Part shown: positions 1 through 18,532 of the stretch, piece by piece
How positions within the stretch are numbered: the stretch's first letter is position 1
Layout: every line of letters starts with the position of its first letter
Assembly (NCBI GenBank): GCA_002269645.1
Contig: NIVC01003716.1
Location: 1-34,850, forward strand
Direction: 5' to 3'
DNA from: Macrostomum lignano
Lineage: Eukaryota
Length of the DNA stretch: 34,850 nucleotides
Position numbers and translations under genes: made by a program
Notes under the pieces: model-generated
The model's database searches: none
Told to the model about the DNA's origin: nothing
Seen by the model: the letters and a program-made list of their open reading frames with translations, nothing else

Positions 1-5
1 AATCA

Positions 6-513
6 CTAGTTCCAATTGCTTGCTCGACTAAAAAATGTCTCGATCAGGATCGTGCCGACTTCTTTTTTCACACTGACTTCTTCTTGTTGGCGTCGCCCTA
101 GTAGAGCTTTTGCAATATCTGCCTCTTCAGCCAGGGCCCAAAAAGCGGTACTATATTTTGGGCTTGGGCGGTCGCGCCTTTCATTCGATGTAATCTTTTT
201 CAGTAGATCGAAAATATTGCTTCCTGGCCAGGTTTTTTCCATCAAATACAATTTCCCACGACTTGTTGAACTCCAAATTCGGGTATCTTTCTGTCAACAT
301 GTCCCAAACTCGTTGTTGTCGTTCAGGAAAACGATTACTCTTCTTTTGCTTGATCTGACTTAGTTTATTTTGGAGTTGAGTGTTGTATTCAATGAGTTTT
401 TCATATTCTGTTTTAGATGCAATTTCTCGGGGTGCGCCTTGACTCAGTCTATTAAATTCTTCTTCTGGCACAACAACGTATTTATTCATTTTAGCGACCG
501 AGTAGTCCACCAA
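6..513 (-). pseudogene. Conserved Polinton hypothetical protein (PW-like), split by a +1 frameshift in an A6 run
   Basis: ORF 181-513 (MNKYVVVPEEEF...WEIVFDGK) joins ORF 6-251 (KTWPGSNIFDLLKKIT...PKYSTAFWALAEEADIAKALLG) if one T of the T6 run at 233-238 is removed. The joined protein matches the pattern K-x-V-L-V-P ... W...GE/EI-V-x-x-G-x-x-x-PGSNI-x-DL ... F of a gene recurrent in Polintons. Family name assigned from memory, not from a search. Confidence 0.65.
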
Positions 514-847
514 ACAGGCTTGATATTAGCGGTGCAGCAACAGATGCAAGGATGGGTACAAAACCACCGACTTGAGGGTTCGAGAGAAGCATATTCTTCT
601 TCCTATTTATAGACAATTTTGTGTCTGCCAATTCACGCAACGATCTTCTGTATCGCTTTAATCGCAGATACTGTTTCGGAGAAAGATCAATATTTCCCCG
701 GAGTACGTTGTGACTCAATTCACAGAGACAATGAATCAGTTCCTTGCCTGCACCTCGAATAATTGCCCGCCGAAGAGTGGGACGGGCTTTGGCGAGCTCT
801 GCGAGCTCGCCGCGACAAGAACATAGTCTGGAGATTCCGTTTGTCAT
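491..847 (-). CDS. Basic Polinton/adintovirus core-like protein (pX/mu- or cupiennin-like), 118 aa
   Basis: Likely ATG at 847 (AAAATG, just after a TATA cassette). Sequence LAKARPTLRRAIIRGAGKELIHCLCELSHNVLRGNIDLSPKQYLRLKRYRRSLRELAD...QVGG|FVPILASVAAPLISSLFGGLLGR: Arg/Lys-rich body, adenain-type GG|F site and amphipathic C-terminal tail, as in adenovirus pX (MRGG|FLP..) and Polinton homologues. Confidence 0.8.
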   Translation of the reverse strand: MTNGISRLCSCRGELAELAKARPTLRRAIIRGAGKELIHCLCELSHNVLRGNIDLSPKQYLRLKRYRRSLRELADTKLSINRKKNMLLSNPQVGGFVPILASVAAPLISSLFGGLLGR

Positions 848-859
848 TTTGTTTAGCAC

Positions 860-927
860 AAAGATGTTGGTTGCAGTGCATCGCAATTTATGCACAATAT
901 ATTTATAGACAAGTTTCATAGCAGCAT
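860..927 (-). promoter_or_regulatory. Viral promoter cassette A, copy 1 (TATAAATA at 909-902), upstream of the 491-847 gene
   Basis: Minus strand GCTGCTATGAAACTTGTCTATAAATA...GCATAAATTGCGATGCACTGCAACCAACATCTTT, ending 12 nt before ATG 847. A near-identical copy lies at 1633-1703. Confidence 0.65.
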
Positions 928-1347
928 TACGATTGTACACCAATTTCAGTGCAGTGGTAATTGACAATAAAATTACACAACATTTGTGACAGCACTAAAA
1001 ATCCAAAAGCGACTGTGAGGAGATGTTGCTAGGTGTCGAGACGGGTACAAAACAAACAATGGAGACACGTACCGATTGTGGAACTTCTTAAATTTTACAA
1101 TGTCTGCTACGGCAGGATCTGTGTTATCAGAGGGTCATCAATCAAATATTTTGACAGTTAAAAATCGAAGCGGGTCAATCAACCCCGCATTACTTTTGTT
1201 GCTGCGTGGTGGAACGTGCCGAGTTGGGATTTTGTTGCTTAGGGGTGTGGCGATAAAATTGCTGCTGCCGCAGGGCAATAAATCAAAAGTTTTTGACAGT
1301 GGTCAGAAGCGGTCATTTTCATTGCAGATTTGGCTCAATTTCATTCA

Positions 1348-1619
1348 GCCAGCGGGGTGCAGCACGAGTGCATTCCGCAGGCCATCCCGAGCGTGGTTGA
1401 GCAAGTCAGGCATGGGTAAAACTACCGTGTTTGGGCGGTCCACGCCGCAGCAGCCGGAGACCACTGATGAGGTTGACACACCTGGTGTGTACTTGGAGAT
1501 CTCGAACGCTGGACCCTCCTGGTGCGACTACCTCATCAGTGCTCTCCAGCTGGTGCAGCGGGGCCCGCACAAACACGGTAGTTGGTCTGTGGGATGCATT
1601 CGTGCTGCACCCCGCTGGC
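1348..1619. ncRNA. Long imperfect inverted repeat; candidate structured viral non-coding RNA
   Basis: 1348-1384 pairs with 1583-1619 (4 mismatches in 37). 1420-1485 pairs with 1518-1583 (11 mismatches in 66). There is a 36-nt bulge at 1385-1420 and a ~32-nt terminal loop. The inverted repeat is directly visible; RNA status is inferred. Confidence 0.5.
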
Positions 1620-1632
1620 ATGGGTGAGCTTG

Positions 1633-1703
1633 AAAGATGTTTGTTGCAGTGTACTGCAATTTGTGCATGATATATTTTATTTATAGACAAGTTTCATAGC
1701 AGC
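1633..1703 (-). promoter_or_regulatory. Viral promoter cassette A, copy 2 (TATAAATA at 1685-1678), upstream of the hairpin
   Basis: Minus strand GCTGCTATGAAACTTGTCTATAAATA...GCACAAATTGCAGTACACTGCAACAAACATCTTT. The first 26 nt are identical to copy 1. The core TTGTCTATAAATA also recurs at 616-604, upstream of the 6-513 gene. Confidence 0.6.
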
Positions 1704-1759
1704 TTGTACGTACATACAAATTTTGTTAAAACAGTAAAGTTACGCAATAGCTATATGGA

Positions 1760-2188
1760 TTAGACATACAAAACGCTAGTCACATGATCGTACATTTGAC
1801 AGAGCTCTTTAAAGTTTCGTATACCAAGGAAAACAAGGCGACCATTCTTTCCGCATAATAAACATTTAGCATTGCGAAATGGAGACTTTATTACTATTCC
1901 ATTGAAAACTTCGCACTCCCACTTCACCCATTGGGACCCTGAGTATGCAATTTGGAAAAAATTTGGCCATCTGTCTACTTCAGCGCGGTAAGTACTAGTG
2001 GTAACAACAACAGAAATTGGTTTACATTGAGGAAAAAGACGCAAAACTTGGTTGACTGAGCGACAACCGAATACAATTGCAGACAAAGAACGCTGAAAAA
2101 AGTTTATTGTACACTTTCCTATCCTCAAATTGATAAGAGCTCTTGGCCGGCGAAATGTCCGTGCGCTCGCCCAGTCCAAGTCAGGCAT
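1760..2188 (-). CDS. Polinton hypothetical protein (~142 aa; ORF open to 2239)
   Basis: Intronless ORF co-oriented with its neighbours; first ATG at 2188 (MPDLDW...); C-terminal CLLC motif. No family recognised. Confidence 0.5.
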   Translation of the reverse strand: MPDLDWASARTFRRPRALINLRIGKCTINFFQRSLSAIVFGCRSVNQVLRLFPQCKPISVVVTTSTYRAEVDRWPNFFQIAYSGSQWVKWECEVFNGIVIKSPFRNAKCLLCGKNGRLVFLGIRNFKELCQMYDHVTSVLYV

Positions 2189-2261
2189 GCAGCTCCATTT
2201 CGCGCAAAACACTCGGTTCACGCACTCGACGTTCTGCAAGTAGATTTTTCGGCAGTTTTCT

Positions 2262-2993
2262 TTACTTTCGTATCCTTCTTGGGGCTTTCGGTCGCTTCTT
2301 TGATTCGTTGGCTGCTACTACTTTCGATTGATGCTGTCGCTTTCTGGCCTGATTTTTAGGCACCTTTGGCTGCTTCTCCTTGACAAGCTTTGATGGTTTT
2401 TTTGCTTTCTTGCTTACTTTCTTGGAGCCTACCTTGATTTTTGGAGGTGGCGTCCAATAGCAACGGTCGAATGCCTGTTTGGCTTCTTCGACAAACTGTA
2501 GCTGTTGAATTTTTGGCATTGCGGTCAAAACAGCGCCTCGAATCACGGCCGTGTCGAGAGTAAACAGAATCCTGTAATAGCCGCTCTTGTTTTTGTAATT
2601 CTCTACAGGCAGTCCGTTTTGGTCGTACATTTTAAAGTCGTGAGCCAGCCCAAACGCTGCACTGTCGCCTCCAAACGCTGCACTGTCGCCTCCAAACGCT
2701 GGGTTGTAGCCCAGAAGAGCTAGACTTTCACTGGAAAGGTGCTCCGCCACAGTGTTGAAAGTGTAGGGTATGCAGCTCTCAATGTGTTTTTGTGCAATGA
2801 TGATGAATTCGCGACCTTCGTTGTCAGTACGCACACCTTTGACAATCAAAACAGGGACCGCATTGGCCAAGTAGAGAGGCCCCTGTTCGTCATATTCAAT
2901 GTCAAACGTTTCAACCCCGTTGAAGCTCGGACCTCGCGGTTTGAGTGCCAGCAGCTCTCGCTTGACGCAGTTGAAGTCTTGCACTGTCTCCAT
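2262..2993 (-). CDS. Polinton hypothetical protein, 243 aa; possible OB-fold ssDNA-binding protein with a Lys/Arg-rich tail
   Basis: ATG at 2993 follows a TATATAA cassette. Beta-rich core ending YYRILFTLDTAVIRGAVLTAMPKIQQLQFVE; ~60-aa highly basic tail; in-frame 21-bp tandem duplication (AFGGDSA x2) at 2650-2698. The SSB call is a resemblance only. Confidence 0.7.
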   Translation of the reverse strand: METVQDFNCVKRELLALKPRGPSFNGVETFDIEYDEQGPLYLANAVPVLIVKGVRTDNEGREFIIIAQKHIESCIPYTFNTVAEHLSSESLALLGYNPAFGGDSAAFGGDSAAFGLAHDFKMYDQNGLPVENYKNKSGYYRILFTLDTAVIRGAVLTAMPKIQQLQFVEEAKQAFDRCYWTPPPKIKVGSKKVSKKAKKPSKLVKEKQPKVPKNQARKRQHQSKVVAANESKKRPKAPRRIRK

Positions 2994-3010
2994 GTCTCTT
3001 GTCTGTTTAG

Positions 3011-3975
3011 AAAAATTTGCAGGTACGGGAGCTTGCAGATGCTCCGGGCTGGTGCTTATATACCCGAGAGTCTCAATAAGTTTTGTTTTAATTACACGAT
3101 AACGAGCTTTTTACGGTGTTGTCGTTATCGAGGATTCCGGAAAAAATGAACCTTTTGTTCCTATTTTCGGGTGCTGGCGTTGGAGGCGTGTTGAAATCCT
3201 TGCTCCAAGTTGATGGTAGTTCAAGCTTTGGCGGCCTGTTTCTCTTGTGCTTTGGCAGCCAAATCTTTTGTTGCTCCTCCCACGACGGATTATACAGATC
3301 TTGATGGTTCCGAAAACGTATTTTTTGGCGATGCTCCTCACTTAGTATCGGAGCCAGTAATCTCTCCATTCGTGCTAAATCAGCTTTGAACCTCATTTTG
3401 TCCCGTAGTTGCTCATTTATCCTGGCTGCTGCGTAGTCTTGGCTGTCGTAGGGACCTTGATCAATTTCCTCGACCTTGGCATTGAAGGTGACTAATCGCT
3501 CAGAAATCGGTTTGCTGTGGCAAATGCACAACCAGTCCGCAGATTTTTTCAACGTCTTATATTCGTCTTTTTCCTCGTTCGATAATAGAGGGTAGTCTCT
3601 GGAAATCCAGCTCATTTCTTGTCAAACACTGCGGGATGTTATTTGAGCTTAGAAAACTGCTGAGAAGCCGAGAAAAGTTTGCAGGTACGGGGGCTTGGTG
3701 CTCTGGGCTGGTGCTTATATACCCGAGAGTCTCAATAAGTTTTGTTTTAATTACACGATAACAAGCTTTTTACGGAGTTGTCGTTATCGAGGATTCCAGT
3801 AAAATGAACATTTTGTACCTATTTTTGGTACTGGCGTTGGAAGCGTGTTGAAATCCTTGCTCCAAGTTGTTGGCAGTTCATGCTTTGGTAACCAAAATTG
3901 CTTGTCAAACACTGCGTTTTCCACATGATTTTTAATTGAACTTGGTGAATTTAGAAAACGGCTGAGAATCCGAAT
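3011..3975 (-). repeat. Tandemly duplicated 'gene 3' end + promoter B' module (copies ~3011-3230 and ~3672-3888, partial third ~3901-3975)
   Basis: Shared blocks GCAGGTACGGG, GGGCTGGTGCTTATATACCCGAGAGTCTCAATAAGTTTTGTTTTAATTACACGATAAC and GTGTTGAAATCCTTGCTCCAAGTTG. CTTGTCAAACACTGCG occurs at ~3619 and ~3901; TTAGAAAAC(T/G)GCTGAGAA at ~3650 and ~3951. Confidence 0.9.
3088..3615 (-). CDS. Polinton hypothetical protein, 175 aa
   Basis: ATG at 3615 follows a second copy of the TATATAA cassette; intronless; charged helical composition. No family recognised. Confidence 0.65.
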   Translation of the reverse strand: MSWISRDYPLLSNEEKDEYKTLKKSADWLCICHSKPISERLVTFNAKVEEIDQGPYDSQDYAAARINEQLRDKMRFKADLARMERLLAPILSEEHRQKIRFRNHQDLYNPSWEEQQKIWLPKHKRNRPPKLELPSTWSKDFNTPPTPAPENRNKRFIFSGILDNDNTVKSSLSCN

Positions 3976-4271
3976 TTTCTTTATTTATGGTTTGCTGTCT
4001 GACAAAATTGACCTGGCATCTTATTAAACGAGAATATTTCATGCATAGAATTTAGTGTTTTTAGACCTTGATGACGTGTCTGGCTATAAATTTAGCCTTG
4101 TGTCTCGACCGGGTTGTTGCGTAACCCTGCTGCAGGTAGCTATAGCGAGCCGCGCAGGGCAGAGGGGTGGACAGCAGCGATTTACAGCGGCTGACTCATC
4201 ATGCGCGCGCGCGGGGGCCGCCAATTTTGTAGGGGCAACAGAATATCTTCTTGGATGCTAATTCTGCGCGT

Positions 4272-4755
4272 ACAGTTATGGGGTGGGTGGGCGCTACAAT
4301 TCTGCCAATTTTGGATGTATATATGGACAGTAAATATGGACAGTTATGGGGTGGGTGGGCGCGCTACAATTCTGCCAATTTTGGATGTATATATGGACAG
4401 TAAATATGGACAGTTATGGGGTGGGTGGGCGCGCTACAATTCTGCCAATTTTGGATGTATATATAGACAGTAAATATGGACAGTTATGGGGTGGGTGGGC
4501 GCTACAATTCTGCCAATTTTGGATGTATATATGGACAGTAAATATGGACAGTTATGGGGTGGGTGGGTGCTACAATTCTGCCAATTTTGGGTGCATATAT
4601 GGACAGTAAATATGGATAGTTATGGGGTGGGTGGGTGCTACAATTCTGCCAATTTTGGGTGCATATATGGACAAGTAATATAGACAGTTATGGGGTGGGT
4701 GGGCGCTACCATTCTGCCAATTTTGGTATATGGACAGTTAATATGGACAGTTAAT
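4272..4755. repeat. ~68-bp minisatellite (about 7 copies) in the Polinton terminal region
   Basis: Unit ACAGTTATGGGGTGGGTGGGCGCTACAATTCTGCCAATTTTGGATGTATATATGGACAGTAAATATGG, with 68-70 bp variants. Confidence 0.95.
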
Positions 4756-5020
4756 TCTGCGTACACCAATGCTGCGGGGTTGGGCGCGCTTGTGCGTACA
4801 ACAACGGCGGAGCGCTAATTATGCGTACTACTGGTCCTCGCTTCTGTACGACACAGTGTACACTGATTACATGTACAATTAGATTTACATGAGAGTTACA
4901 TGCATATCTCACATAATGACTCTGGACCAATTAGAAGAGGTCTAGTGCATTTAGATAGGCGCTGAATTTGCATTGGCTCTGACACCCACCTCACCTCCAA
5001 AACCCTGCTCTAACTGCACA

Positions 5021-5937
5021 TTACGTAGTAATGTAGAGAGGTGACTCGCCAGTGTTTCGTTGATGATTGACGTCAGCTTGTGCTTTGATGAGAGAGGTCA
5101 CAAATCGGAGGTGACCATTCTCTGAGGCAATGTTGAGAGGTGAGTAGCCATTGACTTCTTGAAGATTGACGTCAGCTTGTGCTTTGATGAGTGAGTTTAC
5201 AACTTGGTGGTGACCATTCTGTGATGCAATGTAGAGAGGTATCTCACCAGTGTTTCGTTGAAGATTAACATCAGCTTGTGCTTTGATGAGTGAGTTCACA
5301 ACTTGGTGGTGACCATTCTGTGATGCAATTAATGTACAGAGGTGAGCAGCCATCGTCTTCTTGAAGGCTGACGTCAGCTTGTACTTTGATGAGTGAGTTC
5401 ACAACTTGATGGAGACCATTCTCAGATGCAATGTAGAGAGGTGACTCGCCAGTGTTTATTTGTTGATTGATGTCAGCTTGTGCTTTAATGAGTAAGTTCA
5501 CAACTTGGTGGTGACCATTCTGTGTTGCAATGTAGAGAGGTGAACCGCCTTGGATTTGTTGAAGATTGACGTCAGCTTGTGCTTTGATGAGTGAGGTCAC
5601 AACTTGATGATGACCAAAAAGTGATGCAATGTAGAGAGGTGTCTCGCCAGTATTTCGTTGAAGATTGACGTCAGCTTGGGCTTGAATGAAGATCCCAACA
5701 ATTTTTACTTTTCCCAATTCACATGCAAAATGAAGCGGTGACATTGATGCTGATGAGCCTATCAACGTTAGAAGCTTTCTGCAGGTATCGTGAAATTTTT
5801 GTTGCATTTTCGAACATAATGGCTTCCAGGATCTCTTGTTCAGTCACATCGAGGCTCTCGCTTTGGCTTTCGGACCTGCCGATGGTCTGCATTAGAACTG
5901 CTGCAATCGCTGTCAGGGTTCTTAAAAGAGCTTCCAT
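5021..5937 (-). pseudogene. Ankyrin-repeat protein gene, frameshifted and 3'-truncated
   Basis: About 7 tandem 99-bp units encoding G-x-T/S-PLYIASQNGHHQVVNSLIKAQADVNLQ. Frameshifts at ~5745 (NVDRL.. / MSPLHFACELG) and at a 4-nt TAAT insertion ~5329-5332. The repeat stops abruptly after SPLYI at ~5030. Confidence 0.85.
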
Positions 5938-16795: not shown

Positions 16796-18532
16796 ATCGA
16801 GATCTCCTTACCCCTCTCCATATATTCTCTCATTACATGTGCATGTAAATTTACTCTCATCCCCTCCCTTTGCTTTCTCCGAAATTCTCGGCTTTGAGTA
16901 CACAATAAAATACACACAGTGCTCGTACATTTCCAGACATTCTCATAGGCATTGGGCCTAAGATGCGCTTTTTCTGTTATGTGAGTGAACGATAGTTGTT
17001 AACTTGCTTTCGTCAAAATACATGTAAACCTTCGTCAAAATGAATGGCACCTCTAAATCCACGTACCATAGCACATATCAAGACGCTTAGATTTGTTTGT
17101 CCGTAATGCACTACGCACCCAGACGCCGAATATACGAATGTGCGAGCTCGTAAAAAAACTTTTCAAATTGCAGCAACCTGCAATTGCATTTTGAGAGGCG
17201 CTTTTTTGAAAATGAAGTTAAGTCTAATTATTCAAGCTTTTGCTTTCAAAAGCATTATTCATGCTCATCTACTGCTAAAAGTAACAAATGGTGGTTTTGT
17301 TAAAGATATTGTTAAAATTGCCCTGGTTGACTTGCAATCGTTTTGGGCCACTTATTCGTGACCAATCTTGGGACGCTTCCTCCTCATCCAACTCCACAAC
17401 CCATCACAACCAATAGCAATGCTGGAAGATTAGTAGCTCCCCCTCAATTCCAGTAGCCAGTAAGAGCTGTGGCGGTCTTGGTGTGTGGCGGTCTTGGTCG
17501 TGCGCCGTTGTTTCATCTGCCAATGAATAGTAAAGTTTTAATAATTGTAAATATGTCAGTTGTTGTCATTAATTTGAGATTTGAGATATTTGAGATAACA
17601 GTGATTAAGATATCGGGATCATTTCTTAGTAATAATGACTTAAATGAGTAATTTCTGAATATTTTTGTTTATATTTAATAAACTACGCAATTGAACAAAT
17701 TCAATGCATTTTCGTCATGATATGGCATAACGCCATACTATCTCTTAACTTTCTCAAAGCTTCAAAGCTCAAAAGCAATTAGTCGAGTTAGAATTATTTT
17801 ACTTATTATAAGTAAGTTACATGCGCACAAATCATAAATCCCATTCACAGCTCACTACATAGATTCAATTAATGCTTATATACGAATACTTGTATTTAGC
17901 CTTTTTCACCGGTAGACGAAAAGGCGGCAGACAAAATGACCATGCAGCCTCTAGTTTTGCACATTTAATTATTTTTCAAAAATGGTGACACTGACACTTA
18001 GTTATTGCGAGTAAAATATTTGAGCTTGCATAAGTTTATAAGACATGGCAGTGTGTCAATTTTATGTCTATGGTTATTACTATTAGTTTGAGATGGCTAA
18101 AGGCTATATCTATGGCAAAAACCTGCTCCCAGTCCTTGTTTTTTTAAAGGGACTAAGGTGGGAGGGAGGGACTAGGAGTCCAAGAGATTTTTTTGCCTTG
18201 CTTGCTTTCTTGTGCAATCTTGATTGTCAATCTTGAGCAATAACTCTTCTAGATCATGGCTAAATTTAGATGCCCTGTAGCACCCACTAGCATAAGCCCA
18301 GTTCAGGGCCATGCATGGCATATCTAAGGCCCTATTTGATACCTACCTAGACATACTTGGCATGGCGCAACCTAGGGATTCACCTGGCCATTTCTATTGG
18401 CAACGTACATATATGTAAGTTGCTATTGGACAGAATAGTAGTCATGTGACTGCTCTCAGCCAATAGCAACTTCCATGTGTGTGTAATCTTAATAAAAATG
18501 GCCGGGTGATTCCTAGGGTTGCGCATGTGCAC

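Follow-up and report, generated by a model that had tools for sequence, protein, structure and literature searches.

Small RNAs of mobile elements that silence host genes have been proven mainly in plants. In rice, miR820 is encoded within CACTA transposons and targets OsDRM2, the loss of which relieves silencing (PMC3459959). The long hairpin RNAs (hpRNAs) of animals work the opposite way, as the Drosophila hpRNAs Nmy and Tmy are produced by host loci and silence selfish genes (PMC10317233). A selfish hairpin RNA directed against an essential host gene is described for Teosinte Pollen Drive, in which Tpd1 is part of a chromosomal toxin-antidote system of a plant (PMC11390486). Helitrons and Pack-MULEs capture fragments of host exons (10.1101/777037), and in Caenorhabditis elegans Polintons interact with a helicase gene of the small-RNA pathway, eri-6/7, by disrupting it in cis (PMC11414722). 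Adenovirus VA RNA is a Pol III transcript of about 160 nt with boxes A and B and a conserved central domain, which serves family-wide as a sequence-independent decoy of PKR and can also be diced (PMC7589676). No Polinton hairpin derived from a host gene appeared among the results of literature searches in an open-licence library.

The inverted repeat studied here lies in a Polinton-like element of Macrostomum lignano, in the window, i.e., the whole 34,850-nucleotide stretch of contig NIVC01003716.1 that was analyzed. A sequence-only reading had described two imperfect stems with a 36-nt side bulge and a loop of ~32 nt behind a promoter, and had proposed a VA-RNA-like or small-RNA-precursor transcript. 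The coordinates and mismatch counts of both stems were borne out, as were the bulge and the loop (Table 1). Folding of both strands, which the same reading had suggested, showed the hairpin to be far more stable than shuffled sequences on each, with a minimum free energy of -179.7 kcal/mol on the minus strand (z -12.8) and of -196.3 kcal/mol on the better-folding plus strand (z -14.6), and none of 100 shuffles as good in either case. The hairpin is real. The G.U-compatible mismatches were also counted correctly (four on the plus strand in the outer stem, three on the minus strand in the inner one), but they carry no signal (P=1; P=0.125 for the outer stem alone, 4/4 on the plus strand), and the spacing of the inner mismatches, described as fairly even, does not depart from random (P=0.51). 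A search of Rfam with 900-2200 returned no match better than E=2, the two chance snoRNA matches having E>=2. The sequence CTGATGA, which we take to be a hammerhead motif, occurs in both arms; a hammerhead ribozyme was rejected, as the motif derives from UAP56 codons and has no Rfam match.

Table 1. Positions in the window of the features discussed in the text (strand as plus, minus or, where neither applies, a dot).
Feature	Position	Strand	Remarks
pX-like ORF	491..847	-	No Pfam family match; under purifying selection
Direct repeat 1	860..982	-	Promoter/leader of the pX-like gene; motif at 900-912
Family-B piece, non-coding	980..1343	+	Source: region directly upstream of pPolB in a second element family
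Outer stem	1348-1384/1583-1619		37 pairs with 4 mismatches, each of them G.U on the plus strand
Outer stem, 3' arm of minus-strand transcript	1348..1384	-	Antisense to host UAP56
Bulge, 36 nt	about 1385-1420	-	UAP56 sequence retained here and lost from the sense arm
Inner stem	1420-1485/1518-1583		11 mismatches; G.U-compatible 3 on minus, 0 on plus
Inner stem, antisense arm	1420..1485	-	
Loop, ~32 nt	1486..1517	-	UAP56 sense sequence goes on, shortened by deletions; exact over 12 nt from 1499
Sense arm, inner then outer stem	1518..1619	-	Originally captured UAP56 fragment
Leader/fragment junction	1620..1632	-	Short microhomology, by eye, to the host letters directly preceding the captured part
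Direct repeat 2	1633..1755	-	Duplicated pX-like promoter/leader; 13-nt TATA-containing motif at 1678-1690
Right terminal inverted repeat	4167..5029	.	6-bp target-site duplication at 5030-5035

The comparison of the arms with host genes, likewise suggested by that reading, identified their source. When the genome was searched with 1250-1750, the 40 candidates scored yielded 59 matches, many of them to the promoter part only. Near-identical hairpin copies are found in the same genome on C3716 (the window), C4549 and C1987 at 100% and on C150 at 98%, and six host loci match the arms at 79-87% (E 2e-26 to 1e-27). The host gene matches Pfam DEAD (E 5.6e-43) and, by phmmer, human DDX39B (E 1.9e-149); in the whole-genome search, with 40 scored candidates, the arms matched no other gene than host UAP56. 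These alignments show that each arm consists of captured coding sequence (CDS) of the host DEAD-box helicase UAP56/DDX39B, from which it has diverged by ~13%. Four of the six host loci were examined and have no hairpin. On the minus strand, the stretch that begins at 1619, crosses the loop and ends at about 1478 tracks the host CDS in sense with deletions, and the antisense arm is a fold-back copy of the sense arm that retains the 36 nt lost from the latter. The deletions in the captured piece measure 11, 47 (in the sense arm) and about 24 nt. Because the fragment lies within one exon, capture from RNA and from DNA would look the same.

A host letter is available for 88 paired positions. Both arms agree with the host at 71 of these, the left arm alone departs from it at five and the right alone at six, and at six both arms have the same change. 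Each arm is thereby 11-12/88 from the host, and the unpaired bulge is 5/36 away (31/36 letters as in the host, plus the 11-nt deletion), so that the arms are no closer to the host than the bulge. The six of 17 changed stem positions that are altered alike in both arms may predate the fold-back or reflect DNA-level repair between the arms. Only 2/11 of the shared or bulge changes fall at third codon positions, which places the divergence on the element's side. A 32-nt exact match to the host CDS at 1356-1387, mostly in the outer stem, has a P of about 0.10 and is interrupted in C150. A laboratory dsRNA construct was considered and rejected, the arms being 13% diverged from the host and integrated at two sites. 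One host UAP56 copy (58596-58956 of G000:C1070) has an insert-less copy of the element (40727-45994) as a neighbor at a distance of about 13 kb.

Given that the arms are host UAP56, the generic decoy of the earlier interpretation becomes a candidate gene-specific hairpin RNA. A selfish driver that uses such an RNA as a toxin, with small RNAs against UAP56 killing cells or gametes that lack an antidote, appears highly improbable. A hairpin against an essential gene is its point of likeness with Tpd1/Tdr1 (PMC11390486), but a reverse search with the host exon returned nothing beyond the six host copies, which are near-identical, and the four copies of the hairpin, so that no resistant UAP56 copy is seen, and neither another antidote nor UAP56 homology was seen in the other element loci searched.

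The element itself is about 11.6 kb long with terminal inverted repeats (TIRs) of ~860 bp (copy G000:C4549, ~24790-36380; in the window, 1-5029). Its long TIRs and 6-bp target-site duplication are those of Polintons/Mavericks, and it has a retroviral-type integrase (rve, E 1.7e-7, its 31.9 bits falling slightly short of the cut-off of 32.6). A Pfam search with six ORFs of the window gave nothing over the cut-off. The ORF at 491..847 is presumably pX-like, and other ORFs resemble those of a packaging ATPase, protease, major capsid protein, core protein and penton; size, order and motifs of these other ORFs fit a packaging ATPase, protease, capsid and penton, with no Pfam or PDB match. Since no pPolB ORF is present between the TIRs of the C4549 copy, the element is best described as Polinton-like and lacking pPolB. 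A second family shares a ~6-kb stretch with pPolB (PF03175, E 1e-27; L054 2630-8485) and has none of the first family's genes; the two have no DNA in common except a 360-nt piece in the insert described below. Judging by this gene content, they are possibly a split, two-part Polinton. In distant families a polymerase-like ORF apparently adjoins the ATPase, by eye. The pPolB region of the second family contains a seeming intron, and its examined loci (L038 645-713, L040 891-959) directly follow a (CAA/CAG)n run and the end of a non-LTR retrotransposon that has an RNase H.

Insert-less sister loci (17/17 aligned) are 92-95% identical to the window over 1-982 and again from 1633 and have a single promoter cassette; since they align on either side, the hairpin sits in an insert of ~650 nt between direct repeats of ~120 nt. 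Besides the hairpin, the insert holds the 360-nt family-B piece, which is 75-80% identical to the second family, the latter's own copies being 89-90% alike. No Rfam match was obtained for seven loci holding this piece. Three copies of a ~25-nt motif near 990, 1153 and 1295, recognized by eye, are possible protein-binding sites within it.

Inverted repeats elsewhere were also surveyed. No other long one is present inside the C4549, C150 or family-B elements. An unrelated 65-bp inverted repeat (75% complementary, 30-nt spacer) occurs at 18365-18524 of the window. In three distant elements (L079 4741-4804, L081 3512-3611, L085 4891-5031), short but strong hairpins occur 3-5 kb past the protease-like gene; these are unrelated to each other and to UAP56 and are probably other repeats.

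On the minus strand, a duplicated element promoter is followed by the sense arm, the loop as spacer and the antisense arm, which is the order of an engineered RNAi construct; at the junction, the leader of the pX-like gene runs directly into the sense fragment. The 13-nt TATA-containing motif has three copies in 1-5030 of the window (604-616, 900-912 and 1678-1690), all oriented toward the minus strand and each preceding either a gene or the hairpin; the copy at 604-616 stands before the next gene. The promoter cassette reported by the sequence-only reading is thus real, although its description as nearly identical to that of the pX-like gene was overstated (83% over 71 nt). Between the two copies the core differs at 1/27 positions and the flanks at 7/40 and 14/47; the retention of the core against the flanks (21/87) has a P of 0.023, an optimistic value, as the limits of the core were drawn on identity. 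Promoter duplication recurs in the element: another promoter-like duplication of about 220 nt (3040-3145 and 3699-3804, 90% identical), with a different TATA motif, precedes ORFs of 243 and 175 aa.

Strand choice matters for targeting. Antisense 22-mers of the window's minus-strand RNA match host UAP56 perfectly in 11 cases, with one mismatch in 13 and with two in 16, compared with 0, 0 and 6 for the plus strand; the respective values for the C150 copy are 0, 17 and 26 compared with 0, 0 and 10. The suggestion of a small-RNA precursor is most plausible on the minus strand, as a promoter-proximal long hairpin. The first downstream minus-strand AATAAA is at 481-486, so a transcript may read through and have the hairpin close to its 5' end. 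An alternative promoter in the family-B piece may give a plus-strand transcript.

The statement of the sequence-only reading that no credible protein follows the promoter agrees with our assessment of both ORFs across the hairpin, and a function through a small protein, or through a DNA structure in replication, seems the least probable of the explanations considered. The 71-aa minus-strand ORF (1406-1621) begins at the first ATG past the presumed start site and is open in the window and in C150, but it is out of the UAP56 frame and lies wholly within the -180 kcal/mol stem. The 175-aa plus-strand ORF (1100-1627) has no Pfam match and is frameshifted in C4549 and C1987, the copies of the same locus; as for a DNA structure, most copies transposed without the repeat.

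Contigs from sequencing runs of three studies contain the hairpin. Those of X1 (350 nt, 1358-1707, no differences) and X5 (229 nt, 1377-1602, 3 differences) come from two studies whose RNA status is a guess, and that of X10 (448 nt, 1274-1721, 4 differences) is accompanied by a joint, 912>1692, matching the insert-less form; among the four runs compared, X4 has no contig that covers the hairpin, a gap in coverage that carries no weight. By count, the X5 and X10 variants differ from both hairpin versions of the assembly, which are two in number and 7 differences apart. These contigs show the presence of the hairpin in independent samples and have no bearing on strand, level or small RNAs. Contig depths over the hairpin compared with flanking ORFs (X5, 4.3 and 6.5-10; X1, 4.8 and 39-54; X10, 19 and 188) cannot rank expression and were left out of the evidence.

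The distribution of the hairpin bears on whether it is a trait of the family, as the sequence-only reading had implied. Among 29 close copies, which come from the 40 candidates scored out of 64 and reach at least 86% in the pX-promoter region, four have the hairpin, two have the insert with the hairpin lost and 23 have no insert. With so few carriers, the hairpin is dispensable. The insert junction is present in 6/29, namely the four hairpin copies and C3715 (L035) and C3385 (L036), both of which have lost the hairpin and the second promoter and kept the family-B piece; their family-B piece includes ~30 nt absent from the window, and their pX-like gene has an insertion of ~1080 nt. The window, C4549 and C1987 represent one insertion with common flanks (99%) and C150 a second, each of the two sites having its own 6-bp target duplication. 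The hairpin is absent from 9/9 examined loci of a sister subfamily (87% identity of the major capsid protein, MCP), and the 7/7 loci of this outgroup in which both flanking genes were found have no insert, from which it follows that the cassette arose within the present subfamily. Neither UAP56 homology nor a hairpin at the pX position was found in 20 further stretches, which include the nine loci of the 87%-MCP subfamily and relatives and six loci of distant families. The role as a viral family trait is hence not supported, and the case that the same reading had named as contrary to it, sisters without the second arm, takes another form here: most sisters lack the whole cassette, not just an arm.

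This distribution would fit a neutral accident, in which template switching during replication of the element made a chimera of duplicated promoter, host fragment, fold-back and family-B piece. Such a chimera would now be drifting and disappearing, and its transcript, if any, would be a by-product. We consider this a close rival, nearly as likely as the explanation that we tentatively prefer, an element-encoded hairpin RNA that lowers host UAP56. It is favored by the minority of copies at only two sites, the secondary loss in C3715 and C3385, the absence from the outgroup subfamily, the deletions in the captured piece and the lack of a G.U or spacing signal. Chance capture of UAP56 would also be likelier for a highly expressed housekeeping gene. 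Against it stand the promoter core, kept while the repeat flanks decay, the persistence of both arms over ~13% divergence, and the identity of the captured gene, which is not a random one but a known piRNA and export factor.

Divergence data were used to address age and constraint. Compared with insert-less sisters, the window has a pS of 0.06-0.14 (both branches summed) and a pN of 0.003-0.025; the direct repeats are 22/114 aligned letters apart and each arm is about 13% from the host on one branch. Given these arm and repeat divergences relative to pS, the cassette probably predates the separation from the insert-less sisters, if rates are comparable. The long inverted repeat would then have lasted in a lineage that is under purifying selection and has two insertion sites. 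The sisters resemble repeat 1 to the left of the TATA core and repeat 2 to its right, a mosaic that is expected from a pop-out of the insert and equally from one-sided constraint.

Between the window and C150, the stems differ at 3/206 positions, loop and bulge at 4/66 (P=0.06), the family-B piece at 12/360 (P=0.28) and synonymous sites at about 7/414. Sequence constraint on the stems is not significant, and the equality of stem and synonymous rates, on the one measurable branch, again favors a neutral accident. In all three stem differences C150 pairs better; one is compensating (1374, a mismatch turned into a Watson-Crick pair) and the other two equal the host letter.

The proposal of a VA-RNA-like transcript did not hold. 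As a structured RNA without coding function, from a related member of that virus lineage, the hairpin would resemble adenovirus VA RNA, but the testable VA features (boxes, size, terminator, family match) are missing. On the minus strand, a single B-like site with two mismatches at 1508 has no A-like site upstream, and the loose box matches of the plus strand form no credible pair. The stem measures 272 nt, and the only minus-strand T4 within it, at 1421, is inside the 3' arm; GGGU/ACCC tetramers occur, but no central-domain fold is predicted. With no spaced A and B boxes, no Rfam match and 4/29 copies, we regard as very unlikely a VA-RNA-like, sequence-independent dsRNA decoy that saturates Dicer, export or dsRNA sensors and for which UAP56 was incidental raw material. 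The duplex is indeed very stable and imperfect on both strands, and arm-arm mismatches are richer in transversions (8/15 vs 11/47, Fisher P=0.05), i.e., they are true mismatches on both strands. Nevertheless, such a decoy is contradicted by the missing box pair, end terminator and Rfam match, by a length of 272 nt compared with about 160 nt, by low copy number and by the absence of a family trait. The transversion-type mismatches are concentrated in the inner stem, 1420-1583 (8/11, vs 11/47 between the window and C150; post hoc P about 0.001), which could be due to DNA mismatch repair between the arms or to selection for true mismatches.

Another reading of the captured fragment is that of a shield, in which a small-RNA attack of the host on the element would hurt its own essential UAP56, so that the host moderates silencing and the hairpin is no weapon. 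We judge this improbable. The model is described for gene capture in maize (10.1101/777037) and the donor gene is essential where tested; yet neither an inverted repeat nor a dedicated promoter would be necessary, the hairpin copies are not the more numerous ones, and the maize work found an advantage to the elements "less obvious" (10.1101/777037).

For the preferred hairpin RNA against UAP56, the arm origin, the layout, the complementarity of the antisense arm, a host Dicer (6 matches over the cut-off) and two independent insertions are observed. The six stem positions changed alike in both arms, the compensating change at 1374, the retained promoter core and the persistence of the repeat also speak for it, whereas the dispensability of the hairpin, the non-significant stem constraint and the better fold of the plus strand speak against it. 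A captured and folded-back fragment sits behind a duplicated element promoter, and the element likely transcribes it as a hairpin RNA, the strand and start being those suggested by the motif. Dicer would cut this RNA into small RNAs, which are predicted to lower host UAP56 mRNA, and the weaker RNA export and transposon silencing would benefit the element. UAP56 is part of TREX and acts in mRNA export, and in flies it is needed for piRNAs of dual-strand clusters (PMC4826399); in this host it is a candidate silencing factor. In one flatworm, UAP56 RNAi is lethal (PMC5173321). Integrated copies that expressed the hairpin constitutively would therefore impose a cost, UAP56 being essential where it has been tested. 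Hairpin-less copies could free-ride, as the product would act in trans, and this would fit their majority. As to origin, template switching may have attached a UAP56 fragment of ~245 nt to the leader of the pX-like gene; this fragment would then have been copied into the second arm by a fold-back, and the chimera would have been joined to the piece of the second element family.

Compared with the described systems, the locus resembles miR820 as a small-RNA precursor in a DNA transposon with complementarity to a host gene; unlike the proven plant miRNA, with its short target site co-evolving with the target, it is a candidate precursor with a 100-bp stem of the target's own CDS, in an animal Polinton-like element. 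The Drosophila hpRNAs share with it a long, imperfect, target-homologous hairpin in an animal with Dicer and a context of conflict, and here too a long inverted repeat derives from the putative target gene, but the direction is reversed, in that a selfish element would silence the host. Like Tpd1, it would be a selfish hairpin RNA against an essential host gene; in contrast, no antidote or drive is seen. Helitron and Pack-MULE capture resembles it in the host exon fragment carried by a mobile element and differs in having no promoter-fused fold-back of the captured piece. The eri-6/7 case differs in that a trans-acting copy is carried here.

The hairpin as a feature is real and, on the comparisons above, its origin from UAP56 is solved, its functional role being a candidate one. 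The wider proposal that a Polinton-type endogenous DNA virus built an RNAi construct from UAP56, as a Dicer-based counter-defence acting in trans for the whole family against the helicase through which piRNA precursors and mRNAs leave the nucleus, is somewhat doubtful at present. The question is directly testable, given that one genome offers natural controls, with copies that have the hairpin, copies that have it deleted and copies that never had or no longer have the insert. If the preferred explanation is true, one or two recombination steps would be enough for a virus-like element to make a gene-specific RNAi weapon, and UAP56 would be indicated as an anti-transposon factor outside flies.
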